NCBI GenBank assembly: GCA_036172245.1
Contig: JAYWIR010000028.1
Coordinates: 1,302,001-1,366,000 of the forward strand
DNA: 64,000 nt
Reading direction: 5' to 3'
Origin: Raillietiella orientalis
Lineage: Eukaryota
The notes beneath the pieces were generated by a model. It ran no database searches, was not told the origin of the DNA, and saw only the letters and a list, made by a program, of their open reading frames with translations. The translations under genes and the position numbers were made by a program. Numbering within the stretch: position 1 is the stretch's first letter; every line of letters starts with the position of its first letter. This document shows positions 16,229-39,000 of the stretch, piece by piece.

Positions 16229-16598
16229 TGACAGTGGTCCAGTGGAATACCTTGGACGTTCTTCCACCTTTCATCTCTCACGTCATGGCTAATAATGATT
16301 GAGAGAGTCCCCTAGCGTGGCCATACGTGTGACCTTTTTACAACGATGTAAGATACGAACGCGTCTTCATTCTCAATGCTCGCTCAGAGGGAACATCACC
16401 GATGTCCCTGCCATCCATTGTCAAGAGCATCAGCGACGCCAGCAGCAGTATCCACGCGAGTTCCAGATGCGATAGAGGAACACTGCTGGCGCCGCCAAGT
16501 ACGCGCCCTGATCGTGGCCGTCGCCAAGGTTTTACCGGTGCTCCGGGAACAGCAAAAGAGGAGGATGGCTCTCGCAAGGACCCCGTGAAGATCCTTAC

Positions 16599-16992: not shown

Positions 16993-16999
16993 GCCGTCA

Positions 17000-17860: not shown

Positions 17861-20729
17861 CGAGGAAACAGTGGGAGTAGTAGGAGGAAACAAACCCCCT
17901 CATGGGAGAAGGCTGCGTCCTTCGAAGCAGGAAATCTGATCAACGGGATGAGCGCCATCTTCCGCCCACATCTCCGAGGAACTAGTCCAAGCGAAAGGAA
18001 GAGTACGAAAGGAATAGTTGAGGACCAAAACGACGACATACCCTCCGTATAAAACCGAACCCTCAAGCGATCCCACTTCCACTTCTCACCCATCCAGTCA
18101 TAGGAATCTGAATCCCTGCATCCAGCCTCGCCTCAACCAACCAGACCAAATCCTCCGTCCTCCCCTAACCGAATGGCGGATACCTACGAAAGAACATTAG
18201 CATACAACACGGAGACGGCGAACGAAGGACCACAACTGACCACGCAGACTACTCCATCCATCCAAAATTTTTCCTTTCCCATGATGCCCGCCCGCACTGC
18301 ACATTGCCCGGCAACGCACTCAGCTAAGACCTCGGTTCCTTTGTGCAATTCTTCATGCGATCAGCGCCCCGGCGTGACCGAGCAACCACAACGGACATTC
18401 CTCCAGAGAAACACCACGCACATTGAAGTAGATTCGCGTGCCGCCAAGTAGCCAAGGCGACCGTTTCCCGGAGGGGCGGCGAAACGGTCCTCCTCCACGG
18501 ACAGCATTCTCACCCCGATCACAGCTGCGATCCGTCTGCATCGCAAAGACCCTCTTCTGTTGAATCGATCCATCTACACACGCACCACACCGAAACGAAC
18601 ATGCAGCCTCCTGGTCTCCACAGAAACCCCATCGGCAACACGGCAATGCGACCTCCTTGTCCCGTCCACTGTCTCGCTACACGCGACAGCGAAGCAGCCT
18701 CCCCCCCTCCTTGGACACAATCGCCAAAGGAGAGGTCATTTTCCACACGAAAAGCTTCCTACCCTCGGGGGGAAGATGGCGCGCGTCGCACGGATGGCAC
18801 AGCCTGGTGCTGCTTGCAAGCAAGCAGTCGCGCCTCCTCATCGGGACGAAGAGGTCTCTGGAGTCTGCCCAAAAGGCGGAGGCAACTCCCCACACCCGCC
18901 GATCCACCGCCGGAAAGGGGCAAGAAAGGAAAGCTACGAAAAAGCCCGCCGACAGCCACGATCATTCCCCTGACTCGGAGGCGAGCGCGGGCGCATCCCA
19001 GCATCCCAGCATGGGGAGCGTCCTCCCGAGAGGGGCCAAGGAACCGTGGCAACCGCCGTTGCAGGGCACCGTCCGGGGCGAAGGTCTTCCCCTTCAATGG
19101 CGAAAACAACGCCGCACGGCACCGGAAAATCAACCGGGAGTGGGCGTGCCGCGGAGGGCATCGCTGCGAGAAAGCCACCGAGGCGAAGGGCGACAGGGAG
19201 AATTCGGGAAAGTCCGAAACCTATCGCATCCCGGAAGGAAACCCAGGAGGAAGAGGGGAAGGAGCAAAAGCACAACGCAACCTCCTCTGTGCTCGCCCGC
19301 GTGCGGGACCGCGTCGGTAATACCTGGCCGGGAGGCAGGAGGGCGCAGGGGTCGGATCACGAAATGACAAGAGGGCCGACCTCTCGCGCACCCATTCTCC
19401 AATCCCTGCAAGGGAGAACGCGACCAGCACTCCGCGCCGCCCCTGGCGCCACTCGACGCCCCCGGAGAGAGGAGCAGCACCAGGAGTATCTCGAGCACCA
19501 GCGTGGAAGCAGTGGCACAACGCCGCGGGGTGCGCGCGCAAACAGCCTGCGGGGGCGCAACCACACGCGGCCGTGGCCATAAACGCGACCTTCTTTTTGG
19601 GAGCTGAGGTCACCGAACAGCGAGACCGCGGCCGGTCCGCATGCAAACGGACCAACACCTACGCCGACTGGCCCTCGCACCACCCGGAAAGAAAGAACGA
19701 AGCCCTTCTGGGTGCTCACATGGTGGTCACCCTGTACCCGCGGGCATCCCAGATGGCATTCCCGACGTGAAGCGCATCGTAAACCCTCCGCAGCCTTGAT
19801 CGTCCCCGTCCCTTCCCGACAGACAAACGTCCCCTGCCCCTCAGACCCGCGGAGTACCTGCCGACCCAATTGTTCGCCTCGGAAACGCGCCTCCGAGGGC
19901 GCCGTCGCGTCCCGGGCGCGGAGGTCCTGCTGCAGCTCCCCTGCCTTACGCGGCTGTCCGCGGAACACCTCGCCCGCGCAGGTCGCACGCGCCAAGCGAA
20001 AGAGGCGCCACTTCCGAGCCTGCACTCGGGTCGAGGCAGGCCGACCGAGATCGGCCCATGCGCAAGAGGGAAGCGAGGCGAGCACGCGAGAAAAAGGAGA
20101 CGACTGGATGGGCGCAATCTGTGCAGACGCCTCCGTGACGGGCGCGTGCGCACGGAGAAGACGGGCAGGCGAGCGGCGCCCCACGGCGCTGCTGGAGTCG
20201 AACGAGCAGGAGAACGGAGGCGGCCGGAAGCACCACCACCACCACGAAAACAGCCGACGGGACGAAGATAAGCGCGCCTCCGCATTCCCGCCCGCTCGCC
20301 CAGCAGAAGAGGAGAGACCGAAGACCAGGAGCAGCGTTCCCGAGCCTCTCCAGGACGGTCCCGTCCCATCCGTTCATTGTCCTGACGCTTCCCCGATTCC
20401 CCCCTCCCCTCTCCCGTCGTCCCTCCATTCATCCCTCCGAGATGAGCTCGCAGATACACGCCGCACAACTAGACGCGACGGGCGTAGGTGCCCATTGTCT
20501 GGCCCCGTGCCTTTGTTGCCCAATTCGAGGTCGGCGCCGGGGGACGACCGTCGACTCGCACAAAGGCGGTGCTCTGCGCGCAGTCCAATCGCTCGCGCGC
20601 GGAAGGAGGGGCGACCGACCTGCCAGCGCCCCGCTCCAACCGCTGGCGGACGAGGATGCGCGGCGCTCGAAAAGGCGCCGCGTGCCCGCAAGAAACGCCC
20701 GCGGCCAGCATCGAAGACGGCGGCGCCAG

Positions 20730-20870
20730 GCGCCAGGCTGCGGAGTTCAGCGAGAGCTCCTGGTCTCCCCCTGGCTCTACTTCTCTCTCCATCGAGCGCC
20801 CAGGGCGCCGTTTTTTCTCTGAAAGCGTCGAAAACGCACGCGGATCGCACCCCGGGAGAAAGGTTCGGCG
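20730..20870 (+). mobile_element. APE endonuclease-like LINE fragment (mirror at about 62445-62585, minus strand)
   Basis: FSESSWSPPGSTSLSIERPGRRFFSESVENARG resembles SETWLxP...PGYxFF...RGGG. Confidence 0.35.
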
Positions 20871-21899
20871 CGCCAATCCAGCCAGCGGGATGACACGCAG
20901 CAACGGGCGTTTTCGACCAAGTCTGCGTGTGCAGCCGCGCTTCGAGGAGCGCACCCGGCGTACAGAAGCTGACGGGAAGGCGGCAAGCGAACGTGCGCAC
21001 GCACGGGAGGAAAGGGCGCACGCGTCCCCCTTCCTCCCGCTCGCCGGGAGCTCTCGGGAGCAGTTGCTTGCACTCAAGAGCGCGCCGGTGCACTTCGCGA
21101 ACGCTCGCGCAGGCGCAGGCCGCCGCCAGCCGACCGCTTCCAGTGGCCGTGGGAGTGCGACCTCCGCTGCGCTTCTCTTCGCCCGCCAAACAATGGGCGT
21201 CGCCGACCGCGATCGGCGCGCTTGTCAGGCGCATCGCCCGACAAGAGTGGTCCGGCTGTCAGCGCAGACAATCCGCTGCTCCAGAGCTATCTGACGAGCA
21301 CCGCACGTCCGCTCATTATCTGCACTCGTTAGCGGGGGCGCCGCTGCCTGCCTGACTCGGCAGAATCCTCGCCCGCCTGCAAGGACCCGCAAGGTCACCG
21401 CGAGCGGCGACCACCTCGGCCTCCGGCCCGGACTTCGGACAAGCACGGCCTCAAAGGTCGCGCCGCCTCCCCTGCCAACCCTTCCTCCGCACGGAGGAGC
21501 ACAACCGCCGCCGCTCGGCGTCCGCAACCAAGCGAGCTCCGTCTGCGTCACGGCAGTCGCGAGCGCCATCAGACAGCGCGCTGCTCCTCCAGCTGGCGCC
21601 GTCTGAGACCACCCCTTCCATCGAACGGAAGATCCGCTCAAACGCAGACGGCCCTTCCGGAGTGTCTCCGACGCGTCCTCGGTCGCGCGGGCCAACCACT
21701 CCCTCCGACGAGCGGGCACGCCGTTACCGCAACGGCCGTTGGCGCGCCCTCCGCGTGCCTGCCCATGCCGAGCGCGGCGTACTCGACGCCTGTCCGCAGG
21801 AAGCCCTTCCGCGGCGAAAGACTGAAGGACGCATGCGCTGCGCCGGGGGTCGGCACCCAACGCGCGCACCCCTTCTTCCGTGCTCCGCCTACAGTCCTC

Positions 21900-24700
21900 G
21901 TGCGGTATGGCATCCTCGAAAAGTCGCATCCTCCGATCGCTCTCGCGGGCACGATCCTCACCAGACGGGTCGACTCGGGAGTCGCCGTCACCTTGGCAGG
22001 TGCCACTCGCGACCTCGGCGATCGTACGCCCTCAATCAATATTCCCGGCTTCCTGGAAACGCGGCAGCTATTCCTGCAGATCCGCCTGTCCGATCCAGCC
22101 TCCGGGCTTCCGCCTAAAGCGGCATCCAAACCAGCGGCGCGGAGGTGGACTTCCCGCGTACCATGCAAGGCCGTCGTCTTCCGGCGGTCGCCGCACCTGA
22201 AAAAAGAGCACCCTCTGGTGCTCGATGGACGCTGGGAAGCAAACACTCAAGGATCGGGAAAAACGCGTGACGGCGGCTTTCGGACGTCGGATGATCTTTC
22301 GGAGAATTCCACCTCGGGCGTCCTTGCCGGAGACGAAAGACGGAAGACGCGTTCGGACACCCCAACTCCCGTGTCGCACCAGCGTGCTGGCGGCTGTGAG
22401 CGAGGGCGATCTCGGAACCAGCACGCCTTGCATCCTTCGTCATCCTTCCTGTAGATTCCCTCTTCAAGCTTGAATCGGCGAGGAATCCCAGGCAGGAAAA
22501 GGGCAAGGAGTTTACGGCTGGTCATCGGTCCACAATTTGACTACTCCTGATCGTCGAGACTGGAGTGGGGGGAGGCTTTAGAGTTTCTCCAGAACGGACG
22601 CTCTTCGAAATCGTGCCTTCCTTTTCGACGAAAGTCACCTCTCCTGTCGTCTCTCGGCTGCCGCGCGTCCTGTTGCTCTCCCAAGGTACTCAGAACGCAC
22701 AACCAGATGCCAACGCCTTTCGGGAGTCGAGAGGGTGGAGCCAGCCTCTCCCTCTGTACCTGAACCGTTACCGAGAACGCAGCCGAGGAAATGAGCCATC
22801 CCTCGCTTCCTCCTGCTCCCGCCTTCGCTCCGAACTCGCTCTGCGGACGGGTTGGCCCAATGCTCCCGATGTTTCCACGCGTCCTCCGTGCTCTCCACCT
22901 CGGCCGTCGCGGTAGCTCGTCTCCTCCGCTTCCTCCGCTGCCGCGGTGCTGCTGGTGGGCGACTCCTTGGAGTGCATTCCCTCTTACTTATCTCCCACAG
23001 ACACCACGAGCATCGTCGTCACCCATGGACGACAACGGAAGGTACAAGGAGAGCGGTTGCAATGCAGAAGAGTTCGCAGTGGCTGGGCGCACGGTCGCAC
23101 GCGTGCGGCTGGCTCGGCGCTCGGTTCCCTGGAGTCACCAGCCACCCCACTGGTCGCCTCGAGGGAGGCCTCCGCTCTTGCGGACTCTACTGATGACGAT
23201 CTTCAGGAAGGACCGAAGAACTTCGCTCCCAAGCAGTGGGGAACGCATGGGTGCGTCCCAAGACTTGGGCTGCTCGGCCTCGTGGCCGCCGGCGAAGTGC
23301 TGGCAACTATGCTTTCGCGCAGCCGCTTGACCAACGAACACTCATGCACGTTTGCATCCCCACTTCGGTGCGTGACTTTCGCGAGACGACACGGTCCGTG
23401 GACCTCCTGGTGCCTGCCGGTCAACTCCAACACCTGGCGGCTGCAGACAGTGAACACCAGAATGCAAGTCACCGAGGACCCCACGAAAATCGTCGCCGGC
23501 GGCCAACCGAGGAAATCGGGCCGCATCAACGTCGAAAGGACGGTGGAAGAAATGAAAAAGTGGCTCCCTGAGGCAGCGATGTCCCCCGTTTCGGAACAGC
23601 GTGGCACCTGCCCAGCTGCGAGGTAGGAGGACTTCGTCGAACGGGAGAAGAGGGAGAAGGGTCCCTTGGTGGCAGCTCCTTGCACCACCTGGTCGACGAA
23701 GCAGACTCACCTGGTGCTCCATCCGAAGAACCTGCTCGCTGGCAGCGCCTCCCGAAAATTCCGAAGGAACAAACACGTACGTGAAGATCCCGAAATCCTC
23801 TTCCGCACCCTCCGGGGGAAGGCGCCAACAGTGACGGCGAATACAGCCCCGGCGCCGAAGAGGGAATCGAAAGCAAGGAAGCGAGCGAGCATTTGCACGT
23901 CGATTCTCACGTGCAGGCGTCGAGCCTCCTTCGCAACCGGTCCGCGCATGCTGATGAGTGCAGAGACCACGTGGGGACGCAGAGGCGGCCGTCGGTAGAA
24001 ACGCGCGTGGACACTCGCATCTCGCGGACGGTTACCGGGACGCGCCAGGGAAGGCGTGAGAGCGCCGGAGGATCGGTGAGCCTGCAAGCCCGTGCAATAG
24101 GACTGTCCCGCAAGAAACCGAACGCTGCGGGAAGAAAGGGAACGCCAAGGGCGAAAGAGGGAGGACGACAGGCAGTGAACGGCACCCCCTCCCTCCTCAT
24201 TCTCGACAGATTCGGATGGCATCTCTGCGGGCGATCCACTCCTCGCGACGTCGCTGCTGTCGAGGCTATGCCGGCGCGCATGCCCAGCACACATGGCGCG
24301 CCGCTAGAGGACTGCACACTCTTTCCCTCGTGCCCGCGGGGCGATGGCGGCTGCAGGCGCTTTCCACCCCGTTGCCCTGTACCATGCTCTCCACCAGCTG
24401 GCGTACATTCGACAAGCGTGCGCCCTATAGCATCCGAGGGTGCCATCCAGGAAGACCGCTGCGTGTTTGTAGGACAATCCCGCCTGCTCCGAGACGACTG
24501 CAGCTCGGTGAACGGAGCGTCACGCCGTCGACGTCCCTTACACGAACGAACGGCGCCCGCACACTTGCCCGGCTCCACGGCCCACCGGCTGGAAGAAACA
24601 CTTTCCCTTCAGCTCCATTCCCGCTCCTGCGTGCACATCCTCCACTTTGACGGGGTTTGAGATGATGTCGTGCGCTCCTGAGGCGGCTTCCCAGGGGAGC
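21900..24700 (+). mobile_element. GC-shifted Ty3/Gypsy pol relic (protease-RT-RNase H-integrase N-terminus), left-arm copy
   Basis: Protease VDSGVAVTL (21969) with downstream PLVLDGRW (cf. PLILGxDW). RT IVPSFSTKVTSPVV (SPVV at 22640), QPLP and MDD (23025-23033). Connection ASPLR...WTSWC (23354-23413) and DPTK. RNase H-like ERE and HPKNL. Integrase N-terminal-like DRFGW (24205-24219). The PR-RT-RH-IN order is that of Ty3/Gypsy. No LTRs recognised. Confidence 0.68.
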
Positions 24701-24949
24701 AAAGCGGCGTGCCGTGACACTTGCACACCATCCCCCTCACGGAGAAGGCGACCCTGCGTTTCGCCAGAAAAAGGTGCGCTCGCGGAGCCGTCAGCATCCG
24801 ATGGATGACGCTGTCCCACCTCGCCGCCTTGCGCAAGTGTTCGTCGCCCGTCTTCCCACTTTCGCCACAGACGAGCGCGGAGCGGTTCCTTGCGGGACGT
24901 TCGTCCGCGCATTCGGCGCGCGTCTTTTCCTCTTCCCGTCGCTCCGTCA

Positions 24950-27900
24950 TTCAGCGCGCAAACGCCGCCCAGCGAGAGGGTGTTGCAAGTGGACCGTGGC
25001 CTTTCCGCGCAAAGCGACCACCTCCCGCCCTCTCTGCGCCAGCATCCGCGGCATCCCCCTCTCGTCCAGAGGCAGACGTGGGAAGACGAGACGGATCAAA
25101 GGGCGCGCGCATCGTCCCGGACCGGGAGCAGCGGTCGGGAAGGCAGCCAGCGTTCCCGGTGGGCAGGCGTAAACTTGGGGTGCTGCCCGTTCGTGCGTGC
25201 CGCCCCATCGCCCTCCACTAGTCCGACGCGCTCGCGGTGCGGCGCGCCTCATTTATTCGCGTGAGTTGCGATTTCTCGCGTGTGACCGAGCGCCCCTCCA
25301 GAATGCGCACGCAACGCCAGCAGCGTACGCGGAGGAGCCGCACGAAGGCCGCGCGCTCCCTCACGGATGAGCGGGCGCAACCCTTCCGAAGATGGGACGG
25401 CACTTGACTCGCTCGTGGGCACGCGCCCTTCGACTGTAGTCGCATCGCGGTCCACACGCAGGAGAAATACCTTCCCGCGGGATGAGTCCGCACGTGGATG
25501 CAACCTTCGACGACCCAAACGCCACCGACACAGCTGCCCTCCGAAACACCGCAAATCGCTGGCACTCGCGTGGAGGGAACGCACGACCACCATCCGGGTG
25601 TGCAGCGGGAACGCTTGCGCGGTGGCTCTATCCGTTGAGGAGGTCTTCCGCCATGAGGCAGCGCGTTTCGAGTGCGAGCGCGAGGGTGGGAGAAGGAGGG
25701 GTCCGCCTAAGAAGGGTCGCCCCCAGCATGTATGGCGGCGATTGCAACCGCAACGCAAGGCCGAATGGGGAATGGAAAGCCGCCAGCGCGGCAAGTGGAC
25801 GAAGCTGCCGCCACGAGGGCCTCCCTATCGCGCTGTCCGCCTACTCGTGGGGAAGGCGAACAGTCCGTTCCCCGCCCACTCCTCTCCTTTCGCGTTCAAG
25901 TGCGTGCGCCCCTCCAAAACGAAGCGAAAGGGGCAAGATGCCCCTGATTGCTCCTCGCGCTCAGGCAACATGGCGGGAGGCAGCCGTCGCTCCTCGCCCT
26001 TCCTGCGCGGAAAGGCCCGTCATCTTGAGAATGCGCACATTCGGGACGCGGCCCCTGCGTGGGCCCGAAATGTCCGCCAATGCAGGCGGACGAACCTCTC
26101 CGGCAGGGAGGAAGGCGGGCACACAGCTTGGCCCTACGCCAGCGACAAAGGTTAACGGCGACTTGCTCGATGCGCAACGACGCCCACGGTGGAGCTGCGC
26201 AGCGTGATGTCACTACGACTGCCGTAGATCGACACCCCCACCGGCGTGGAGACCCGACAATTCGCGTGTCCGCGAGCTCCCCGACTGCACGCCCTGGGGA
26301 AGATCCCCCTTACGAGACAGAGAGGAGATGCGGCTCCCCTTCGGCTGCGAGGAGTCGCGCAGTCGCGTCCCGCCCGGTAGACGCGCTCCGGTTTCCCGGG
26401 GGATCCGAGAAGAGCATGCCCACACGCTGCTTGAAACACGACAACGCGTGAGCAGACATCGCCGCTGGGCATCCTTCGCTACCAGCGGGGGCGCCTTTCC
26501 TGTTCGGCAGTCCCGCGCTGCCGCTCGTGTGCGCTGCTCCCCTTCACCGTGCACACTTCTTCGGAAGAGCCTTCGGAAAGGGGGCACTCCCACGCTCGGC
26601 TTCGGGTTTGGGAGACGCGTGCTTCCCAGGACGAGGGAGTTCCTGGAAAAACCACATGCGCTGAATAAGCTGGCGAAGGAGAAAGAACGGGTGGGCCACG
26701 CCCCGCTCAGTTTCCCCCCTCTCCGCCTTCCCTTCCCGACACTGCAAAGAGATACCCTATCCCCTGCGCACGAAAAGCAGCCCACAAACTAACCACGGGT
26801 AGTCCCAAAAAGGGATGACGATGTCCACCACAGAGGCGTGGGTCTTCCTGGAGTCGCACGGTTTGTTCGCACGCTCGCTCGCCCGTTCCCCTGCTCGGAC
26901 GACTCGCGGCTCGTGGTCGCGACTGCCACAAGCGCACGAGCGCAAGCGTCAAGTTGTCCGTCGGCAAAAGGCGCAGCGCGAGAGGGTTTCCAGGGGAACG
27001 TGTGCGATCTCTCGCCTCGGACCCCCCGCCGGAAGCACGCGTCTTCCCGTCGTAGCGACGGCTGCACGCGCTGCGACGCGCGCAACGGCGCGCTTGCCGC
27101 TCTTCGCCCAAGCCAAACGCGCGCGCCAAGCTGCCCTTCCAGGCAAGTCCGCACGCGCCTGCGCAGCGGTGCTGCGCCCGCGAGCTTCCTCGGAACGGCG
27201 CCTCACCGTCACGCGCGCACGTGCAGGCCGAGGAGGCAACGCCACGGTAGGGCACGCAACTCGGACGCGCGTGCGTGCGGCCATAAGTGCATGAGTGCAG
27301 TGCAACGGCGTCGACGACGACCGTTCCCAGCGTATCCTGGGAACGGAAAATGCGGAAAACGGAACCGACAAACGCATGCGTAAAACTTGTGCACTTCTCG
27401 CGCGCACGCGCGTGCGCGAAAGACGGGCTTTTGCGTTGCCAGGCTTGCGCACGGATTGTCGGTTGCCGCCGCTCGGGAACAGGCTCCGAAGAGCGCGTTC
27501 CCGGTCTCCCGCCGGCCTAGGAGGAAACGCGCACGTTTCCGGCGGGGGCAGCTTCAGGCCAGCGGGGCGAGGGAAAGCGCGCTGGGATGACCGCTGCCGC
27601 CGGCGAGAGCGCGCGTCTCCGGACGGTGCTCGAGCAGCCCCAGAGGCACCCGTCCGCCAGTAGGCGGGAAGTTGTGTTGTTGGGGACGCAGCACAGGGCA
27701 GTCGGCGCGAGAGGTGTCGCGATTGTTCCGGGAGACCCCCGCCAGGGTCGCCTCGACAATATTTTGACAGCCTGCGGGCGGCCCATTGTGTTTCTGTCCC
27801 CGCCCGAAATCGGGGCGGCCCATTGTGAGGCAGCCGACTCGCGTTGCAGATCCCGCGTGAAAAGCATCGCACCACTTTGGCGACCGCCGACGGCGACCCG

Positions 27901-28150
27901 CGCAAACCGTCGGCCGCCAGTACGGTGGCGCTGCGGAACACGTCCAGGCAACGGCGGCAGCGCGTCCACCGGCAGGGCGTGGCGCCTGCAGCACTGCAGC
28001 GGCACGCAGCCGCTGCAGGCACGACCGCCGTGCACCTTCGACGCCTTCCTCGAGGATGATGCATTCGGCGACCGTAACCCGGAGGAGAGTCTCCCGTTCC
28101 CAAGCGCAGTGCGTCCGCGCTTTCGAAGTGCGCCGCTCTCCACTCCAACA
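24950..28150 (+). mobile_element. GC-shifted CR1-like LINE ORF2 relic, left-arm copy
   Basis: APE end GTALDSLVGTRPS (25403, cf. LDLxxTNxP). RT start TLLRKSLRKGGTP...VLPR (26568, cf. LFNxSLxxGxxP..PLPK). SGAAPASFLG (27165, cf. SGVPQGSxLG). C-terminal ILTACGRPIVFLSPP (27779, cf. YxAxVRPILEYxxP) and GTQPLQARP (cf. LGLQPLxxRR). Confidence 0.6.
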
Positions 28151-28629: not shown

Positions 28630-29500
28630 ATTGTCGTCGCACCCCGTGCCAGCGAACGCAGAAGCAGCGGTCCCTCCGCTTCCGTCCGCTGCCGTGTGGA
28701 GGCGCCTTCCGTCCGGGTACGTACCTGCATTTGCCACGTGTCCCCTCGTCCCGAAAGTAGCCAACCCTGGAGCTGAAGCTGCCTCGCGCAAAAGTGTGGC
28801 GCCCGGCGTCCATCGGACCGCTGACTCGCCCCCGGCAGGCGATCGCGCCCCGGGAGAACAAGGTGTATCTCAGGCCCGGACGATCACCTCGAGCACCAAC
28901 GTTCCTGCTAGGCAAACCTCACCTATCTGCGAAGAGCGGGATAGCTTCCTTCTCTTCGAGAGTACGGACACCTGCCCACCTTGGAAAGCAGCGTCGTTGA
29001 AACGAACGCGCAGAAGATGCCGGAATCAGCCGTCGGAAGGGAAGGAGATGGAGGGCGGCTGCGCAAGCTCCGAACCACCATTAGCGACTCGAAATAGGGG
29101 GGACCACTTTCTTCCCCTCCAACCCAGGTCCCCCGTCTAGACGAAGGACTAGCTCCCTGAACACGGTCTGCGCGTTACATCACCCGCTCCTAGGCGGTGG
29201 GAAACGTGGGTAGCGAACTTGGCAGACGAGAAAGGTGTCCCGAGGCACCGCGCGACGGCTCTGCCGCGACGAGCACCATCACGCGAGCGCAACTAAGAGC
29301 GCCTTTCTGCGGCGACGAAGAAACCACCGCAGCCCATCGGAGAACACCTCTTCGGAACAGGGACGCCATCTCCATCGTCATCCGCTCGTCTTCGTGACGG
29401 CGAGAGGACGCGGATATTCAGTCCGTGAGCCCTACCAAGGTGAAACCGGATCGGAACTTGAGCGGTGCGCCGTCCTCCCTCCTTCCACCTCCCAACTCGT
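28630..29500 (+). mobile_element. Further LINE RT fragment in the arm (mirror at about 53766-54636, minus strand)
   Basis: RLPSGYVP...PLVPK (28706, cf. SLxxGxVP..PxPK), VGSELG (cf. QGSxLG), FCGDE (cf. FADD) and SVSPTKVK (cf. LNPxKTK). Weak, manual. Confidence 0.4.
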
Positions 29501-30139
29501 GCCGAGATGGTTCGGCAAGGCGGGCGGTGACGCGAAGAAGCCCTGACTGTTTCCTCCCGCTCCCGCGCAAGTCGCCGTAGTCTCGTGTGAACCTTGGTCG
29601 TCGTCTATAGCGAGCGTTGCTCTACGAAAAAGCGCAGAGGTAGCCCTGAAGGGAAAGGATGGCGTTGCGGCTGCTGGCGTGCGGCGGCTCGGCCAGCGTC
29701 CAGACGACGGTCAGCGTACATCGCCGAAAGGACAGCCCGAGAAGTGAATCAGACGGAAACCGCCGCACCGGCTACGGTTTGGGCGGTGCATCACTCCCAC
29801 CTGGCAGGAGACTTTCCAGCTTCGCGCTCGAAAACGTTCGGGGAATCGGGAGAAGCCGCTGCCAGGCGACAGGGCAACGGCCCCTTCCGACCTGCTCGCC
29901 TGGCTGGCTGAGTGCTTGCAGCTGACGCGGAACCGGGAGCGTGCCAGGCTAGGGAAGCCACCGCCGGACACGTCCCCTATCTTCACGGTACGCGCGCGCG
30001 CTGTCCACCTCCCGCAGGGAGCAGAAAGCGCAAGCGCGGGAGGTACTCCCCGAGCTGGGCGACAGGGAACGGTGGGGCGAAGGAAGAAGCTTGCTCCGTT
30101 CTTTTCTGCTGCTGAACACGCCCAACCCGCGTGACCTTT

Positions 30140-30480
30140 AGCTGCTGGACTCCGCGGAGGGCGCGAGAAAATGCTCCTGAGGTCTCCCGTGCATGCACGC
30201 TGCGCTTGGGGCTACGCCGCCAGGCGTGGGAACTCCGTTTCCCAAGCGTCTCAACAAGAACGAGCAGTCGCGCAACTCTTGCTCGCTTCCCGGAACCCCA
30301 CCAAGAAGAAACGCATCCAAGCAACAAATCCGCACACTCCCAGAAGCGCCGCCTCCGCTGGACTTCGAGACGGTGGTCGCTGCCGCCACCGTCTCGAAGT
30401 GACGGATGTCGAGAGGCGTCGCGGATGCGCTCTGAAGGGAAGCGCAGGACGCAGGACCGACGAGCAGTGAAGAAACGGGA
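30140..30480 (-). mobile_element. Possible LINE RT N-terminal fragment (mirror at about 52786-53126, plus strand)
   Basis: VSKSSGGG...ICCLDAFLLGGVPGS resembles KAxGxDG...LFNxCLxxGxVP. Confidence 0.28.
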
Positions 30481-32316
30481 GCTTCGCAGACGGCGGAAAC
30501 CAAGCGTAGATTTTCGCCTGCAGACAGCCACCCTCCCGTGAAGCCCTGTGCTTTGCCTCTCGGGACGCCGCCGTGCAGCCGATTGCTCCTGGCCAAAGCC
30601 TCTGTGGCGAGCGGGACGCGCTGAGCCCTGCTTCGAGCGCGCCCCGCAGAAGCCGTGGGGCCTCCGTGTTCTCTCCGCTCCTCGGTTTCCCAGCAACGGG
30701 CGCGCGCGTTGCCTTTTCCGCAGGCGCCAATCCTCATCCCTCGTCCCAACCCGCAAGAGGAGCACGTCTTCCCGCTGACGTGCTCCCGAACCAGCCCCCG
30801 TTCTGCCCCATTCCTTTCCCCCGAGGTGCCCCAGGCAAACAGAAAGGGCAACCGCAATCCAGAAGGCTTCTCCGCATGACCGTGTGCATGCCGGACAGGA
30901 ACCGGTGGCGCGTGCGGGACAATCAAGAGTTGAGGCTCGCGACGGCCGCCTCCCGTTCCACCTGCAGCACGCGCCGCATCAGAAAGTCTCCCCATCGAAA
31001 CTGGGAACAACGTGGAGAGCGCGTGCTGCGTCACACGCGAGAGCTTCCCGCGGCCATGTGCCAAAGAATTGGAGAAGGTGCGTCGCGCCTGGCGCAGAAC
31101 CCGCTCGCATCCTTAGCGCCCAGAGACAACCGGAGGGGGGGGGGAAGAACCGAGCCAAGTGCCGCAGCACGCGCGTCTGACCGGTCTCCCGCCGAGGAAG
31201 CGGCCGCCAGGTAAAGGCCGGGACGCTCCGCGGGAGCGAAGAGGTATGCCTCGCCCCTGCGCACATCCTGCGGGTGCGATCTCATCAAGTGGAACGGAAA
31301 AGCAAGTCCGTCGCGTGCTGCCCGCTGCTCCCAGACGCCTTTTTGTTCCGCCTCACACGCAACGAAGGCAGCGCTCGACACCGTATCGCCCACAGAAGGC
31401 TCAGTGCGCTTCTTGTCCGGGGGCGGATGGGTGGATCCCAGGATGCACAGGAAGCCGTCCGAAGGCGACGTCCTCTCGTCCTGGGACGCCTTCGAAGAGT
31501 TTCATCCTACTCCTCCATCCTACTTTTCTCCTGCCTCGAGAGCGTGGTGTGCCGGCTGGGATGTTGCTCGACGCTCCTTCGCGTATCCGCTTGCGGACAG
31601 CGTTCGTCTGTGCATTCCCGCCAAAGGGACTTGCCGTGTCCCGATCCTATTCAGTGAAGGGACGAGTGTCCGCATCGGGGACGTAGCCAGCGGGCAGCGT
31701 ACGAGGATGAGGAAGGAAGCGTAAAAAGAGCTTCGACCCCACAACCCTCTTGCGGGAATCGCCGCGGCTGTCACCGGGTGACCTCCACGGTCTGTCCGAT
31801 AAGCGGAATTGCACGGGAGGAGCGCGCCGTCGGTTCTTGCGCGGCGTCTCTCGGAAGGCACGAGACTCGTCGTCCAGGCAACTCGTCTGCCTGCGACGCG
31901 TCTGCCTCCTTCCGCGGTTCCTCGCCTCGCAATTCAAAATCGCTACTTCCCCTCTCTCCCACGCGACCCCACCAGTGCTGTGGCACCGCGGAAGCCTCCT
32001 GTTCCTCCGAGAAGAGACCGCCGGCTGGCACCCATCCGACGGAACGTCGTCGTCGTCTGGTTTTCAGATCGCTTCCGAACCGTCGGCGGCTAAGGACGCG
32101 CCCCATCGGTCACGACAGGAGCAGCGACATCGTTCCCTGGGAACGCGTTTTCCTGCGCCGCGATCATCGAACGGCGGCGGTCGTGCGCAAGCGTTGCTCG
32201 CGCCTGCGTGCGCGAGAGGCGCAAAGCTGCGGTGACGGTGGGTGGAGATGCTGAAGCGGGCAAGGGCGGCAGCGAGCAAGCCGGCTCGAGTCGGGGCCGA
32301 GCTGCCGGCGCGGGAT

Positions 32317-35300
32317 GCCTCCGTCACGAAAGTTGCATCGGCATAGAAGAGCGCTCTTCCTTCCGATGGCGCTTCCCATCTCGTCAGCTGCCGACAGCCG
32401 AACCCGCGGGAAAGAAATCCGAGAAGCGACGGCGCGCATGAACCGAGGCGGAGGAGCGCGCCGCCACTGTGACCACGGACAGAAGCCCTCGGATGATTGG
32501 GTTTCGAGCAAGAGGATCGCACCGCACCAATCGCTGCACCGCAGCGCCTTCTCCATATCCTGCAGACCGAGCAATTCAAACACCGTCCCATGTCCAGCGA
32601 CCGCAGCAAGGGACATCCGCTCTCTCTGGTTGGGCCCGGCAACGCGCTGCCAACGACCCGATGACGGTAGATCGCTGCTGCGCCCTCGCTCGCACGAGGC
32701 GGCCCTTCCGTCATAACGCACCAGCATCGCCCCCGCAGCTGCCGTCACGTGGCTTCATCGGGCAGAATCCTTCAGTAGAAAGGACCGGGCGAGGAGGTGG
32801 CAGAGAGCCGGTGGACGACCGGCCACCACCTCGGCCTCCCGCGGCGCACGTTGAACGACTTGAACCTGTTCGGGAGCTCCTCTTCGAGATTGGGCGGCGG
32901 CGGATCTGCAAAGCCTGCCCTCTGCTGGCGCGCCTCCAGCGCTGCGTTCCCTTCTCCATCGATGAGATGCGCGCGCAGATGCACGCATTCGGTGCCGGGT
33001 ATTCGTGGCGCCTCTCGAGGCTGCGGGCGAGCGCTGGCGGCGGCATCCGTCCGTACCTGCCGCTGGAGTCCGCCGTCGGCAGCAAGCGGGAGATTGAAGT
33101 TTGGGGACGCGCGCCGCTGCCTCGCCTCCCTCTGGCATCTCTTTCGGTCGCCCTCGCAACTGCGCTTCTCAGTAGCGCATCCGACTAGCCTTTGCTTTCC
33201 GCGCAGCCGAACGCGGGAAAGTGGTGCTCGCCTCCGTCCGCGTTCTCCAGCTCTACGAGTAGGCGGTGCATCTCATCAGCCCATGGCGCCGTCGAGCGCG
33301 CCACCGGACAGGGAGAGCAATCGGTCGTCGCCTGTGCAAGAGGCGCGCTCCCCAAGCATCCCTGCGGCACGCCTTCCCCTTCGTGCGCTTCCACGACTGC
33401 CGACGGCCGCGGAAGCGGCTCAGCGTTGCCATCCGTCGGTTGGCAGGAGTTCCGCGACGTCGAGCTCCAGGACAACGCGTGTCGATCGCGCGCGCTGCGG
33501 TCGGAAGAAACTGTTAGAGCGCGGTCGCACGCACGGCGCGCTCCCGGTCCGTCAGCCTGCCGCCCGACGGGTGCGCTGCTGCCCGGCAGCCGGAAGTCGC
33601 CGCGGGGTAGCGGCTGCGCACTCCTCCCTCGCCCCGCGCCCGGCAGTCTTCGAAATCCGCGCGCCCGCCTCTCCGCAGCTTGAAGAGCGACGCTCTCGGC
33701 AGGGTTTGCTGGCAACAGGAAAGCGTCCCGGGAAAGCGCGCAGCGGCTTCCGAAGGTTGGCATCCCTGGACTCCATGGTAGTTGCACGGGGACGCCTTCG
33801 TCCGCGAAGGAGCTGCCGTTCAGCTGCGTCGTCCACCAGGCTTCCCTGCCCGGATGTTCGTTCCTCTTCCGCTGCGGCGCGGAACCGCTGGCACTGGTGA
33901 CCGGTCTCGCATGTACCAAGAAATTTTCCGCGCTTGCGCCGTCCCGTCTTCCACGGATCGTGAAAGGGATCGCCAACTGCTAGGCGACCGGTAAGCTCCT
34001 CGTGGCTCGCTCTTCCCGCAGTTGACCGCAAGAGAAAGGAGGGAGCAGGAGAGGGCGGTGGCGTCCGACCTGACGACGGCACGCACGCGCGATTCGCTCC
34101 TTTCGCCCGCCGCGCGCTCTGCTTCTCCGCTCCAAGTGGGCGCCGCTCGCTTGCAGACGCACGGGGCGTCCGCGGCTGTTGCGACCTCGCTTGAGCTCGG
34201 GCGCTGCCCTGCACGCCCACACGCTCGCCACCTTCTCGCCGTCGCCACGAGGGAGAGGCTTTTCCCTGTGCTCGTGAGCGCTTCGCGAGCTGCTCCTGGG
34301 ATCGAATGTCGCGCGAGCTGGAGGACACTTGTTCGGGGAAAGCCCAGGTGCTGTCCCCTGCAGCTGGAGCGGGCTTTCCCTAGCTGCGGCGCCACCGTCG
34401 GCGCTTTCCTGCACAGCAAAGGAAGGCAGATCGTCCGCACCGTTCCCGCCTGTGTCCGACTCGGGAACGGGGACGGATGCGGCGATCAATCGGCGCGCGC
34501 GCTTTTCCTGCCTGCCATCTTCGCTTGAATCGCGAGGGGTGGGGTGACGAAGCACCCTCCGCCAAGTGTCCAGGTCGGCCGCTTCCGAGCGGGGGCGGCC
34601 GGGGAGATGCGTGCAGCACGTTCGCGGCGATCCCTTGCTGCTGCCGGCAGCTCTTCTGCACCGACTCAGACGCCCTCCAAGCGCGCGCCCTGCCCGTCTT
34701 CCAGCCAGCTAGGCCGCTGTAGGCGACCCTCCAACCTGTAGGCGCGTCGCCGCCCCCGCCGGCCCGCGCTGCGCTTTCGTCCGGCGCTCCCGCGTGAGGT
34801 CGCTGCCCGTCCGCTTGCCCGCTCGTTCGGACGGACGAACGAGCGTCCTGGAAGCGCCGATTGCCGCAACCGTGTTCGCGTTCCAGAGATGCGTCCCACG
34901 TGTCTCGAGCTGCCCGTTCCCCGGTCCCGCGTGGTGATGCGTGCGCCTTCGTCTCCTTCGGACACGATCCTTCTTCCCAAAGGCTGCAGCGCTGTGAGTT
35001 ACGACGCTGGTGACTCGTGGTAGCGTAGGGAAGGGTGCGTAGACGATTGGCGCTGGAGTGCTCCCGGACGCCTCTGACGTGAGTAGGATGGCCAATCCTG
35101 TCCGGAAATCCAGGTCCTTCTCCCCGATGGTTTCTTCGCAGGCCGTGGAGAACGCGGGGTGGTACCGTGCTGCGGCGCGGGTGCCTGTCGGTGGCGCGCG
35201 CCCGCGCAGAACCGATTGCCGCCTTTCGACGTGCCGTCCGGGCGAAGAGCGGTGCTGGTAGACGGCAACCGGAGGTCGAGATCGGAAGTCGCCGGATCGG

Positions 35301-35767
35301 AGGGATGCGACCCGCGGCGGCGTGCGCTCGTGGCTTTCGGCTGGCGCAAGAAGCGCACGCCACGCTGCAGGTACGTCCTCTCAGGCGCTCAGTCGTGCAC
35401 AGTCCGCGGCGCTGCTCGCCGCCGTGCGATGTGGTCGATCCGGGAGTCCTACTCCGGGAGTGAAACTCGGTTGGAATCCAGGGTGCTCGGGTGCTGCGCT
35501 GGATGTCTCCCGAGGGAAGATTCGCTCCATCGCACGTGTCCCCGCCGTGTTGCCTTCTCGTCCTTGCGTGTTGAAAAGCACCCCCTCCCCTCGACGGAGT
35601 GACACTTGTTCCCCAATTTTCTTCTCTATCGTGGGTATTGCGGCGGCTTCCCGTGTTTTCCTCGAGCATCGGGCTCTTGCGATCTTTGCTGCTCGCACGG
35701 CCCGCGTGTTTTTCTCGGTGAGCTCCTCGTTCCGAGTCGGCTTGGTCGGAGCGGATGTTTCCTCCCT
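32317..35767 (-). mobile_element. Left-arm copy of the same CR1-like relic
   Basis: Mirror of 47500-50950. GVPQG at 33359-33373 and WADE at 33272-33283 (ORF 33185-33976). Confidence 0.7.
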
Positions 35768-36034
35768 GCATGATGGAAGGCCATGCTGCTTGGTGGCGTC
35801 GCTGGCATTTGCGGTGACGGACCTCATCGGAAAGGCTGCGCGTTTGCCGGCAGCAGCATCGCAGTGTGAGTGTTTTGGTTTCTCCCTGAACGACGGCATG
35901 CACTTTTCTGTATGCATGGTGTTGTCGCCGGGTGGAATTTTGTCCCGTGACGCACGTGCTCGGGCTGCATGGTCTCTGGGTGTCTGTCGATGTCTGAGCG
36001 AGTGCTCGAGGGGGGAAAACAGAGGTCCTGTTTG

Positions 36035-39000
36035 TCACACGAGAGCCTCCGAGAGCGTTTTCTGCGTCCCCTGTCGTGGGAGCGAGCTGCTGCTGGTACA
36101 GGACTCCTTCTTTCCCGGAGGTTGCACAGCTCCAGGGAAGATCATGCAGACGCAACGTTTACTCTTCGTGTTTGAGATGAGGCAGTCAGGAGACTTCCCG
36201 TTGGGTCGGAGGTGGTGCGGGACGGGATGCGCCTTCTTCGTCCAGGGGTCGGATGCCTTCGAATGAAAAAACACCGGGAAGCGTGAAACGTGTCCCGTTT
36301 TCCGTGAAGAAGAAGGTATTCCGGAAGAAGCCGGTGCAGACAGCAGGAAGATTCGTTCTTGTGTTGCGAGCCACGTGCTGCGAAAGTAGGCGATCCCGAT
36401 GTGCAGCGGTCCTGACTTCCCGTGTGCTGAGGGGGAGGAAGAAAAGAAAAGGAGCTTAGCGCTGTCGACGGCGGTTCTGCTACGCAAGGCATAACGAAAC
36501 GAACGCTTTCCAGTACGGGAAAAGGAACATCGATTGCAGACATATGGGGATGTGGATTCTGGAGAAAAGGAATGCAGCGGGAAGGAATGGGGAGAGCGAT
36601 GCGAACGAGTGGCTGTGGCCCCTTCGAAAGTGCACCTATCCGGGGCGCTTGGTCCTTCTCCCCTTCCGTTCCGTTCCGCTGAAAGGACCCGTCCGGGGTC
36701 GTCTTGTGCATCTGAGACGCGCCTGCTTCCGTACGAGCGGTGGAAGTGCAGCGGGACCACCCGCTGAAGCACGTGACCATTTCCGGAAGAGCTTTTCCCA
36801 CGTCGAATGTGGGGAAGAGAACTGCCTCTTCGCTGACCTGCAAAGGCCAGAGGGGTTGCTTCGTTGCTGTGGGAAGTGTACCTTAAGCGTAGGCTGATTC
36901 CTTCCAGTCGTTCCATGTTTCCCCAAAGAGTCGTACGCGTGCTCGAAGGGAGCGTTCGGAAGACCGTCCGTCTGCTAAACTTCGGATTCCGAGTGAAGGC
37001 GTTTGAGGTCTGAGGATATCGCTGATTTCGGTTCGCCTCTTCCGTCTCTTTGAAAGGCGAGGTCGTGACACCTGAGGTGATTTCGTATCCGTGATCTGTG
37101 CTGCTCTCCACAGCATCATATCCTGCAAGTATGTTGCTCCCGGCAGTGATCTCCAAGCTGCCGTGAAGAGTCTCTTTGACTTCTGTGCTCTGCCGTGGTT
37201 GCGTAGTCGCTCCAGATGCTTAGATACATAGTGAAAATAGAAAGAGAAGCAGAGTAGCAGGATGTCCGATCTTGAGAAAAGAGGAGCCTCTCTGCGGTTT
37301 TTACTGTTTGAAAATGGCGTATTTAGAATTTGAGGTTGTTGTGCATTAATGGTCGTGTACTGTGGTTGTTGATTTGCTGTGAGGAGGATCCGAGTTCGAG
37401 ACGTTTTTTGATTTTTGCTTTATCTAAGGTTTGTTTGTCTTTGTTTTTGGTTGCTGTATTTCCAGAAATAATGTTTGTGAAATGTGCTCAAATTTTAAAT
37501 CTTCCGCTGGCTGCTGCATTCCGTTTTCTCCTGTGCATCGAATTTTATTCGAAGCTCATGGAATGCTCTTTTTTCTTCTCATCATTCGCTTCTCTGGCTT
37601 TATATAAATGTGACTGGCAGAGTTCTTTTTTCTGGCAGAGTTCATTTGATTAACAGGAGTGCGGGATGCTGATTCTCTTCTTTATGAAGATGTGGGTTTG
37701 CCCTTATCATTTTTAACTCTCTCTCAGAGTTCATTTGTTTTGTGGTTCGCAGTTATGCACTCTTTGCTTGTTGGAACTGAGTGTTTATGTCTTTTGCGTC
37801 TGAGACTGCACCCCATGTTCCGCTGAATTTTTGTTCCATAAATGGATTATGAAAATGATGCTGTTTTTACGATGCATCTTGGACCGAAGAATGCAAGTGC
37901 GCTCGATTCCTGCAGTCGAAACGAAGGCTGACATTTGTCATTGAGATTTCTACTGTAAGTGAAGAAGAGTAGTTCGCGACGGCATTGAGGGCAGATTTCA
38001 TCATAAGAAGTTGATGGATGCGAATTGAGACGCTTGTTGGAGGTGTGGACGTTTTGCTCCCGCTTTCGTGGTTCGCTTCTTCAACCACCAAAGGTCATGT
38101 TGGCCACGTTCCTGTTTTGCTAGCGTGCTAACAAAATTCCTTGCTGTTTCCTGTGATTCACATGATCACAGCTCATCATCCTCGGAGACTGGTGCTGCAC
38201 CTTTTTACAAGTCTCACGAATAAATAGTCTGCTTATGGCGCAGAAAGAGGATTCTCTTTCTGCGCTTGAGGAATGGTGGAGCATATCTGGAATTATTATC
38301 GGGGAAATCGCAAGTGGATGTCGAGCGTTTCCAAACGTGGCCTGCGAAGAGCGAAAGCCTTTGTTTTGGAAGACATTGGCGAGCGGTGGGGTCTTCACCG
38401 GCAGATCGAGACCCCACAGGTTACAGAACATCCACTGAAATAAAGGAAACTGTTCTCTAAATCTAATAGGAAGTCTTTGGGCTTCTTCCGTGTACAAATA
38501 AGAAGTTTGGACCTGGCACAATAACTGAGAAGTTCAAATTATAGGTTCTATCTTAAAAATAGAGGGAAGAACATCTGTCTATACTCGTTGGGTCTCTATG
38601 GAAACAATGAAAATTCTCCAAGTGGATAAGTGAATCCATATTTAGAAATCACCGCGACTCATTTGAAATCCCTGTTCATTTAAAGAGAGACCCGAAGAAC
38701 CCTATAGGCTCCTTACATGATTTCCTTTCGTGAAGTGTGCGGATGGAACGATCCCAATTAGTGAAATGTTCATCTAAATGATGCAGTTCCTTCCAGTTGG
38801 GTTCACGAGAAATGACTTCATGGACCCAGAATATAAAGTTTTTTGTAGTCGGTTTTCTTGAGCGTTCGTTTTACGTGGTTTTGCAATTCAAGTCCTCCTC
38901 TCCAGATCTGAGTTTTCAACCTTGTTTTTATCCTTTGCATAACTGTCGGATGCTGCGTATCGGATGTCGATTTCAGCACCCTTCGGCATGAGGCTTCAGA

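Follow-up and report, generated by a model that had tools for sequence, protein, structure and literature searches.

The stretch of DNA analysed here, referred to as the window, comprises 64,000 nt of contig JAYWIR010000028.1 of Raillietiella orientalis and contains a large inverted repeat. A repeat search and blastn placed its arms, 99.8% identical, at 19315–37264 and 46005–64000 (17.95 kb aligned in two HSPs of 99.72–99.80% identity), on either side of a spacer of 8740 nt (37265–46004) that is unique within the window. Arms matching at more than 99% and separated by unique DNA are features of large palindromes maintained by gene conversion between their arms. The arms can be followed to the window end only, where the right arm is truncated: position 19315 pairs with base 64000, and the visible start of the left arm is thus the window limit, the domain start of 18000 given in an earlier note on this DNA being arbitrary. 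At both spacer junctions, the repeat continues as an imperfect extension of 51 nt. The divergence between the arms is 0.22%, made up of 39 substitutions and four indel events, including a unique 48-nt sequence present in the right arm only (55164–55211, aligned against left-arm position ~28103), indicating two physical copies rather than one copy read twice.

The GC content of the arm was 64.7% (0.647) and that of the spacer, which carries A/T homopolymers of up to 22 nt, was 44.0% (0.440), confirming the contrast pointed out in the earlier note. The 60-nt lines sampled there do have GC contents of 0.72, 0.80, and 0.75 in the arms versus 0.38 and 0.42 in the spacer, but the arm lines belong to the top 10%, and the word ‘extreme’ is not borne out. 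The arm core (19315–35460; GC 0.656) is very homogeneous, without internal repeats or A/T runs of at least 8 nt. In 100-nt steps along the arm as a whole, GC varied with an SD of 0.051 versus a binomial value of 0.048. The 17.95 kb of the arm contain no A/T run of 8 nt or longer, whereas the spacer and the far flank have 0.6–0.7 per kb. The GC content changes at 35461 and again at 37221 (0.68 to 0.57 to 0.43), and these change points delimit an inner transition zone (35461–37264) with a GC content of approximately 0.57, falling to 0.50 in its final 200 nt. The change point at 37221 lies within approximately 45 nt of the homology end (37264; repeat end given as 37211–37264), and the GC domain coincides with the palindrome arms, as had been claimed. 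At the left junction, GC falls sharply (0.50 to 0.39), whereas the fall at the right one is weak (0.50 to 0.46). Steps of this kind would also be expected if an inverted copy of an existing GC-rich block had landed beside AT-rich DNA.

Left of the visible arm, a GC shoulder (11201–19314; change points 11201 and 18751) has a GC content of 0.567 to position 18750 and 0.65 beyond, GC already reaching 0.57–0.62 at 11.2–19.3 kb, with an intermediate density of A/T runs; this shoulder may be further arm sequence whose partner lies outside the window. The observed/expected ratio of CpG was 1.14 in the arm, where the abundance noted earlier was confirmed, 0.81 in the spacer, and 0.89–0.94 in the left flank. 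CpG depletion is thus absent throughout the window, which makes a vertebrate host with CpG methylation improbable.

The arm contained 87 open reading frames (ORFs) of at least 130 aa, 11 of which were at least 300 aa and the longest 592 aa. A frame-blind second-order Markov model of the arm yielded 87.5±5.4 ORFs of at least 130 aa with a longest frame of 584±121 aa; the many kilobase-long frames reported earlier are therefore present, but in a number no greater than expected from composition. Stop codons were evenly distributed over the six frames (χ2 68.2, df 55), no frame being preferentially open, and period-3 power remained at the null level over most of the arm. The translations were rich in Arg, Ala, Gly, and Pro, as in random GC-rich DNA. 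At approximately 65% GC, the AT-rich stop triplets TAA, TGA, and TAG seldom occur in any frame, and this rarity accounts for the long frames. Only at 22801–24600 did a period-3 signal exceed the null (power 3.5 and 3.3 versus a null 99th percentile of 2.93; GC3 z = 4.0 and 2.8), and for the candidate frames of this stretch, 22916–23995 on the plus strand with one stop and 23206–23706 on the minus strand, neither a Pfam match nor a homologue was found. The arm ORFs yielded no Pfam domain, and searches of the arms found neither rRNA nor tRNA nor any other Rfam family. The window also yielded no recognizable flanking genes, the longest flank ORF (347 aa) being without family. The arms thus apparently are essentially non-coding, and their long frames are a by-product of composition.

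The arms contrast so strongly in composition with the neighbouring DNA that they might be taken for foreign GC-rich DNA, for example of viral, plasmid, or bacterial origin, or for a gene-bearing element dispersed in many copies. Such an origin is, however, very improbable: no Pfam domain was found in the arm ORFs, most of the arm shows no codon periodicity, no Rfam family was found, whether rRNA, tRNA, or other, and the translations resemble random GC-rich DNA. Moreover, no match to the arms was found among plasmids, phages, IMG/VR, and JGI metagenome contigs, and arm and flanks share an oligonucleotide signature (r_di 0.79–0.91; r_tri 0.70–0.91), suggesting that the arms are native DNA. The earlier proposal that the frames are open through loss of stop triplets, and not because a foreign coding element is present, agrees with the Markov model, the even stops, the missing periodicity, and the flank-like signature.

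The earlier note further interpreted the arms as ordinary retrotransposon debris, that is, as mainly decayed copies of CR1/L2 LINEs and Ty3/Gypsy elements in which GC-rich codons replaced the original ones, with few indels. A single lead exceeded chance: GVPQG and WADE stand in one frame, 25 residues apart, at 33272–33373 on the minus strand, with a mirror copy at ~49894–49995 on the plus strand. A spacing of 25 residues between the two is typical of the blocks that surround the FADD/YADD box of LINE reverse transcriptase (RT), and the residues retained can be encoded by GC-rich codons. A looser form of the pair, G[VLIA][PRK]QG.{20,30}[FYW]AD[DE], occurred in 0 of 400 arms simulated with the Markov model, and GVPQG alone in 3%. 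However, no further RT blocks were recognized beyond this pair, and the ORF carrying it did not match RVT_1 at E ≤ 10, although HMMER filters may conceal very weak RVT_1 matches. The same ORF matched no RT among PDB chains, had no homologue at E ≤ 10 among 6021 word-sharing candidates, and reached a recognition of 1380 in a protein language-model atlas, under the 2300 reached by most real proteins.

The profile check that the earlier note had itself proposed revealed no RT, APE, or protease similarity in any ORF tried. RT, endonuclease, protease, RNase H, and integrase Pfam models matched 0 of 391 stop-to-stop ORFs. In the arm region, where 257 ORFs were searched and ORFs of at least 60 aa span 83% of the six-frame space of the arm, neither the 138 ORFs of 130 aa or longer nor the 119 of 60–129 aa matched RVT_1, Exo_endo_phos, RVP, RNase H, or rve at E ≤ 0.01. 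Relaxing the threshold to E ≤ 10 gave no match to these five profiles in 35 ORFs (9 + 26) around the claimed relics, including Exo_endo_phos upstream of the candidate RT (ORF 34383–36158 on the minus strand and its neighbours) and RVP, RVT_1, RNase H, and rve of Gypsy type in the 26 plus-strand ORFs at 21.3–27.4 kb. The quoted peptides all exist in the translations, but the strings attributed to Gypsy pol are 3–4-mers that recur 4–9 times in the six frames of the window (VDSG 4, SPVV 6, MDD 8, ASPL 9), in neighbourhoods unlike those of protease or RT; as skeletons of retrotransposons, the strings thus find no profile support. Furthermore, no frame is preferentially open, and a comparison within the window found no diverged repeat copies shared between the arm and the remaining DNA. 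Considering these results, it is rather unlikely that the arms consist mainly of retroelement relics.

The closest published match to this idea of GC-rich retrotransposon debris is offered by Trypanosoma cruzi, in which GC-rich centromeric strand-switch domains are said to consist of degenerate retroelements (PMC13508446; PMC1868937). Like the arms, these domains are gene-free, GC-rich, and 10–20 kb in length within less GC-rich DNA (PMC13508446). Their GC excess is, however, small (54.6% versus 50.5%), and the available text of the source describes no palindrome (0 uses of ‘palindrom’ or ‘inverted’; PMC13508446). RT or endonuclease domains of L1Tc/VIPER type were not detected in the arms, and in the window the arms are not flanked by directional clusters of long genes without introns. 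A trypanosomatid strand-switch domain was rejected as a candidate identity, with no retroelement domain of L1Tc/VIPER/DIRE type in the arms and no recognizable flanking genes in the window.

The differences between the arms are distributed patchily. At 21272–23333, 18 of the 39 substitutions were observed versus 4.5 expected (P = 7e-8), and at 31358–37254, one was observed versus 12.8 expected (P = 3.6e-6). Weak/strong (W/S) differences account for 30 of the 39, unpolarized. In the inner 1.8 kb, the arms are most alike, yet the GC content of the arm is lowest. This patchiness is the pattern expected of conversion tracts, though a palindrome growing in steps, or mutation at uneven rates, may also produce it. 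Transversions outnumbered transitions (24 versus 15), which is unusual for natural divergence.

Nearly identical inverted arms would also result from an assembly artefact, if two haplotypes of a single GC-rich locus, or a chimeric fold-back, had been assembled head to head. The right arm reaches the last base of the window, which could be the contig end; the patchy, SNP-like divergence of 0.22%, together with the 48-nt indel, looks like heterozygosity interrupted by runs of homozygosity; and the transversion excess could reflect consensus errors. However, the arms are separated by 8.7 kb of unique spacer, and the 51-nt imperfect repeat extension is found at both junctions, whereas fold-back chimeras usually turn without a spacer. 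Furthermore, the arms differ by 39 substitutions and only three small indels, the opposite of long-read consensus error. An artefact is thus improbable, slightly more so than an origin from retroelements.

Large palindromes are known from primate sex chromosomes, including P1–P8 of the human Y chromosome and 12 conserved palindromes of the X chromosome, and GC-biased conversion has been described for them (PMC8981503; PMC3723533; PMC8600007). As far as the accessible text goes, the equilibrium GC content (GC*) of primate X palindromes is 60.9% in the arm versus 39.9% in the flank, an odds ratio of 2.35, from which the authors infer a conversion bias of 0.70, or approximately 70:30 (PMC8981503). 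The locus described here resembles these palindromes in its inverted arms of more than 99% identity, its unique spacer, and arms GC-richer than their neighbours. Provided that the spacer is at mutational equilibrium, which the argument presupposes, the arm/spacer GC odds ratio of 2.33–2.43 is equivalent to a bias of 0.70–0.71 and equals the published equilibrium value of 2.35 (PMC8981503). Primate arms, on the other hand, have a GC content of 46%, far under their equilibrium, whereas the arms here stand at approximately 65%, as if equilibrium had been reached; primate X palindromes contain genes in 10 of 12 cases according to the available text, whereas none was recognizable in the arms here; and the window differs from primate palindromes in lacking CpG depletion. 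GC enrichment is also attributed to frequent non-allelic conversion with a GC repair bias in the conversion-homogenized rDNA arrays, histone families, and segmental duplications cited in the accessible part of PMC8981503. Those sequences are tandem or dispersed functional genes, whereas the present locus consists of two inverted non-coding copies without an Rfam family.

On the basis of these comparisons, we propose the following scenario, to which we give an even chance: the locus is an old, native, non-coding palindrome close to the equilibrium of GC-biased gene conversion (gBGC), reached at ordinary strength by a known mechanism. Intrachromosomal gene conversion from arm to arm would keep the two arms alike, and heteroduplex repair would favour G/C over A/T at roughly 70:30. 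The arms would consequently drift to approximately 65% GC, the unpaired spacer remaining at approximately 44%; the rarity of stop triplets would then yield long spurious ORFs on both strands; and substitutions would become so numerous that the original content of the arms is past recognition. As in a gBGC domain, the arm exceeds the adjoining DNA in GC content and the change falls where homology ends, although the right step is weaker. We infer from the data above that conversion homogenizes the arms, is GC-biased, and caused rather than followed the rise in GC. The inner 1.8 kb, most alike yet least GC-rich, requires an extra assumption, for example recent growth of the arms into the spacer. 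More tentatively, conversion may have lasted so long, or run so fast, that the arms are non-coding DNA at full gBGC equilibrium, the contrast of approximately 65% to 44% GC matching the 70:30 shift in odds, and that all ancestral features, possibly those of a LINE with one surviving motif pair, have been erased, a stronger version that seems doubtful to us.

The order of events may also have been the reverse: a pre-existing GC-rich non-coding domain may have been duplicated recently in inverted orientation, its GC content predating the palindrome and owing nothing to conversion. The divergence of just 0.22%, the sharp step at one junction and the gradual one at the other, as if one arm were original and continuous with the spacer, and the GC shoulder of 0.57–0.62 beyond the visible arm are consistent with such a duplication. 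In the accessible text of PMC8981503, the primate authors credit gBGC with only part of the gap between arm and flank and consider that palindromes may form more readily in DNA that is rich in GC. However, the extreme patchiness is unexpected from a single recent event with uniform mutation, the fit of the odds ratio to 70:30 would be a coincidence, and no other process was identified that makes 18 kb of non-coding DNA 65% GC beside 44%. A recent inverted duplication is thus a possible but less favoured explanation, with the same doubtful standing as full equilibrium.

GC-biased conversion between the arms, proposed in the earlier note, is thus a reasonable cause of the composition of the arms; its ‘unusual strength’ is not supported, the odds ratio being equal to the equilibrium value of primate X palindromes. 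Nor is an ‘undescribed system’ supported: the enrichment of palindrome arms in GC through biased conversion has already been published, and the finding is not new in kind. For annotation, the locus serves as a warning that in such domains kilobase-long ORFs in six frames and short ‘catalytic’ strings arise from composition alone and are not to be recorded as genes or transposon relics. If the stronger version, full equilibrium, is true, no palindrome had previously been seen at this end point, which those of primates are only predicted to approach, and the host genome would be that of a non-vertebrate and show no CpG depletion. Should the palindrome prove real and old, it would represent a natural end-point experiment for gBGC, in which the contrast between arm and spacer gives the bias directly (approximately 0.70), and the primate value of the bias would hold in a very different, unmethylated genome.

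The repeat search returned one large inverted repeat in the window, consisting of four gap-free blocks in which 19315-37211 pairs with 46056-64000, and at a lower length threshold the repeat extended to 37264/46005 via one mismatch and a 2-nt indel. The homology frays at the inner end instead of stopping cleanly: the last 51 nt (37212-37264/46005-46055) lie behind the indel, which is a CC present in the left arm only, and contain the mismatch. Base 19315 is paired with window base 64000, so the outer end of the left arm as seen here is imposed by the window and is not biological; the arm itself may extend further. The GC content was 0.647 in the whole arm, 0.656 in the arm core (19315-35460), 0.565 in the innermost 1.8 kb of the arm (35461-37264), and 0.440 in the spacer (37265-46004). 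The observation of GC-rich palindrome arms in the earlier note is largely real; the GC values given there for five sampled 60-nt lines were reproduced, though the three taken from the arm belong to the most GC-rich 10% of such lines.

Change-point fitting placed GC steps at 35461 and 37221 (0.68 to 0.57 to 0.43), the second no more than about 45 nt from where the homology ends, and at 11201 and 18751 on the left side of the window (0.50 to 0.57 to 0.65). In 200-nt bins, the step at the left junction was sharp (0.50 to 0.39), whereas that at the right junction was weak (0.50 to 0.46). The composition of the arm was very even, with a standard deviation of 100-nt GC of 0.051 compared to a binomial value of 0.048, and neither tandem nor dispersed repeats were found in the arm. 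A/T homopolymers of at least 8 nt were absent from the arm and occurred at 0.6-0.7 per kb, with lengths up to 22 nt, in the spacer and far flank. The A or T runs of 15-22 nt in the flank and spacer are located at 2336-2377, 6700-6741, 12940-12981, 40186-40235, 41643-41684, and 44113-44154, and the homopolymers there could be the tails of old retroposed copies or mere AT-rich slippage tracts.

The left arm aligned with the reverse complement of the right arm in two HSPs with 99.72% and 99.80% identity (blastn), and the arms differ by 39 substitutions, three small indels (1, 1, and 2 nt), and one 48-nt segment. Because the substitutions far outnumber the small indels and the 48-nt segment is unique to the right arm, the comparison speaks for two physical copies and not for one sequence folded back by the assembler. 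Transversions outnumbered transitions among the substitutions (24 versus 15), and a hand count between 21272 and 37255 assigned 15 of the 39 to A:T<->C:G transversions. Such a transversion-heavy spectrum is unusual for natural divergence and could originate from the mutation spectrum of the host or from consensus errors. An assembly artefact, in which two haplotypes were joined, is nevertheless quite unlikely. The substitutions were also distributed very patchily, with only one in 31358-37254 compared to 12.8 expected (P = 3.6e-6) and 18 in 21272-23333 compared to 4.5 expected (P = 7e-8). Furthermore, 30 of the 39 involve A/T versus G/C, the G/C allele being in the left arm at 10 and in the right arm at 20 of these positions (binomial p = 0.10).

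The di- and trinucleotide biases of the arm parallel those of the flanks and spacer (r_di 0.79-0.91, r_tri 0.70-0.91), with AA, GA, and GTA/TAC and GGA/TCC high and AC and TA low in all of them. Owing to this agreement, the arms appear to be native to the surrounding genome and not a virus or a transferred block. A foreign element is also opposed by the lack of any plasmid or phage match for 24001-32000 (blastn), and this explanation is highly improbable. Neither a search of IMG/VR with a 50-mer nor one of JGI metagenome contigs with a 60-mer returned an exact match. For want of any domain or codon periodicity, we rejected a giant virus, herpesvirus-type IRs/Us, a Streptomyces-type TIR, and a bacterial insert, and a trypanosomatid centromere was rejected for want of a retroelement domain or recognisable flanking genes. 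No match to Rfam was obtained at the gathering threshold, the two matches at E<=1 (Six3os1_2 and mir-4650) were at chance level, and no tRNAs were detected, ruling out palindromic rDNA or an organelle genome. The arms had a CpG observed/expected ratio of 1.14, compared to 0.81 for the spacer and 0.89-0.94 for the left flank, and CpG was not depleted anywhere across the window. The undepleted CpG would disfavour a CpG-methylating vertebrate host, making a framing of the arms in terms of CR1/L2 elements less natural.

The earlier note proposed that the arms are retrotransposon debris in which the skeletons of CR1/L2 and Gypsy proteins persist, and named a profile search as the decisive test. The Pfam scan covered 391 stop-to-stop ORFs, namely 138 of at least 130 aa (1-47300), 134 of 70-129 aa in the flank and spacer, and 119 of 60-129 aa in the arm, where 83% of the six-frame space falls within ORFs of 60 aa or longer. 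None matched a reverse transcriptase (RT), endonuclease, aspartic protease, RNase H, or integrase family, leaving the proposed skeletons wrong or at least unproven. The matches at E<0.01, APH (E = 8.8e-4), zn-ribbon_14, Antimicrobial_5, DUF7640, DUF6455, and Herpes_ORF32, did not reach the curated cut-offs, and chance alone would produce such matches with 391 queries. Rescanning at E<=10 detected no retrotransposon domain in nine minus-strand ORFs (approximately 32-36 kb) or 26 plus-strand ORFs (21.3-27.4 kb). The strings assigned to Gypsy pol recur in the six frames of the window (VDSG four, SPVV six, MDD eight, and ASPL nine times), and the sequence around them is unlike protease or RT.

The pair of strings assigned to CR1/L2 fared better. 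GVPQG (33359-33373) and WADE (33272-33283) lie exactly 25 residues apart in one minus-strand frame, an arrangement that would match the two central RT blocks of LINEs in both order and spacing. The pattern G[VLIA][PRK]QG.{20,30}[FYW]AD[DE] occurred in none of 400 arms simulated with a second-order Markov model, and GVPQG alone in 3%. For the 264-aa ORF carrying them, however, RVT_1 was not matched at E<=10, no PDB chain of an RT was recovered, and none of 6021 candidates sharing words with it reached E<=10; its language-model recognition was 1380, compared to the 2300 reached by most real proteins, and no usable atlas match was obtained. There is about an even chance that 33272-33373 is a real, nearly erased LINE relic. 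Such a relic would account for 100 nt of the 18 kb and would not make the arms as a whole transposon debris, and an origin of the arms mainly from transposable elements is unlikely.

The long ORFs pointed out in the earlier note, which it read as frames kept open for kilobases, are present. Counting stop-to-stop ORFs in the arm by minimum length gives 87 at 130 aa, 40 at 200 aa, and 11 at 300 aa, with a maximum of 592 aa. Dinucleotide-preserving shuffles gave fewer (60.8±4.9, 18.2±3.4, and 3.2±1.5, respectively), and none of 100 shuffles reached the observed counts. However, the second-order Markov model, which keeps trinucleotide frequencies and is blind to frame, matched all ORF statistics in 60 simulations (87.5±5.4, 37.9±5.2, and 11.9±3.1 ORFs; longest 584±121 aa), so that the apparent excess of ORFs vanishes when trinucleotide composition is taken into account. 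The excess over the dinucleotide shuffles arises because TAA (observed/expected 0.54) and TGA (0.62) are depleted on both strands; measured against dinucleotide expectation, these two and their complements (TTA and TCA) fall further short than any other trinucleotide of the arm, and the TA ratio is 0.35. The most enriched are GTA/TAC (1.43) and GGA/TCC (1.36), and both the depletion and the enrichment recur in weaker form in the flanks. This pattern could reflect a context bias of mutation or repair.

The 432 stops across the six frames were no more uneven than expected by chance (chi2 68.2, df 55), and codon-position GC in the arm was almost without periodicity. Period-3 Fourier power was at the shuffled level throughout, except at 22.8-24.6 kb (3.5 and 3.3 compared to a null 99th percentile of 2.93). 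Given the Markov fit, the even stops, and the near absence of periodicity, the kilobase-long open frames are a by-product of composition with no reading-frame memory. The translations of the long ORFs are rich in Arg (11-16%), Ala, Gly, Ser, and Pro, as is typical of non-coding GC-rich DNA. P0004 (23206-23706, minus strand) is, with P0002 of the flank described below, one of the two ORFs that had the best coding signal; its homologue search was empty, and the best atlas scores (0.80-0.81), to bacterial hypothetical clusters, were at chance level.

Outside the arms, the minus-strand ORF P0002 (16399-17022; GC1/2/3 = 0.56/0.56/0.73), which encodes 208 aa rich in Ser, Ala, and Pro, has a third-position GC signal stronger than any other in the window. 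No homologue of P0002 was found by word-indexed search or by phmmer against 1.84 billion representatives, and it could represent an exon belonging to a lineage-specific gene. It adjoins a 33-nt tandem repeat of 2.7 copies with 92% matches (16130-16217). Pyrimidine-rich, degenerate repeats of the CTAT/CTTC type are common to 11026-11344 and 13559-13793, two sites separated by 2.5 kb within the GC shoulder to the left of the palindrome, and 13559-13705 is a degenerate repeat of 4.2 copies with a 35-nt period. In the spacer, a single minus-strand frame (42198-43115) holds three ORFs of 110, 90, and 95 aa that are separated by short gaps with two stop codons each, and the middle and last are more protein-like than the remaining spacer. 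This stretch may be a decayed gene; its ORFs had no Pfam match, and the last two had only chance-level PDB matches. For P0005 and P0006, two frames of the spacer, PDB matches did not exceed chance.

Biased arm-to-arm conversion that enriches palindrome arms in GC, presented in the earlier note as a candidate undescribed system of unusual strength, has already been published (PMC8981503). Primate X palindromes have 46.3% GC in the arms compared to 41.2% in the flanks, equilibrium GC from replacement patterns is 60.9% and 39.9%, respectively, and the inferred conversion bias is approximately 0.70 (PMC8981503). We used an odds model in which the GC odds change by a factor of b/(1-b) for a conversion bias b, assuming that conversion is fast relative to mutation and that unpaired DNA is at mutational equilibrium. 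Under this model, the arm/spacer odds ratios, 2.33 with the whole arm and 2.43 with its core, are equivalent to a b of 0.70-0.71. Because the equilibrium values of PMC8981503 correspond to a nearly equal ratio of 2.35, the contrast would need no unusual strength, and an ordinary bias at equilibrium would suffice. The interpretation in the earlier note was thus right in spirit on composition and conversion, and wrong or unproven on skeletons, strength, and novelty.

We favour the following scenario, which has about an even chance of being right. Conversion between the arms with an ordinary GC bias would have brought them to equilibrium GC, implying approximately one or more substitutions per site, and such heavy substitution would have left the arms featureless and even, without A/T runs or recognisable relics. 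The intermediate GC of the inner 1.8 kb would require the added assumption that the arms recently grew into the spacer. A recent inverted duplication of a pre-existing GC block is a possible, though less probable, alternative, which the sharp left and weak right junction steps and the GC shoulder at 11-19 kb fit equally well. The authors of the primate study state that biased conversion only partly explains the present arm/flank difference and that GC-rich DNA may readily form or keep palindromes (PMC8981503). Overall, the window of Raillietiella orientalis contains a palindrome with GC-enriched arms, which is of a known kind and is possibly an unusually mature example.
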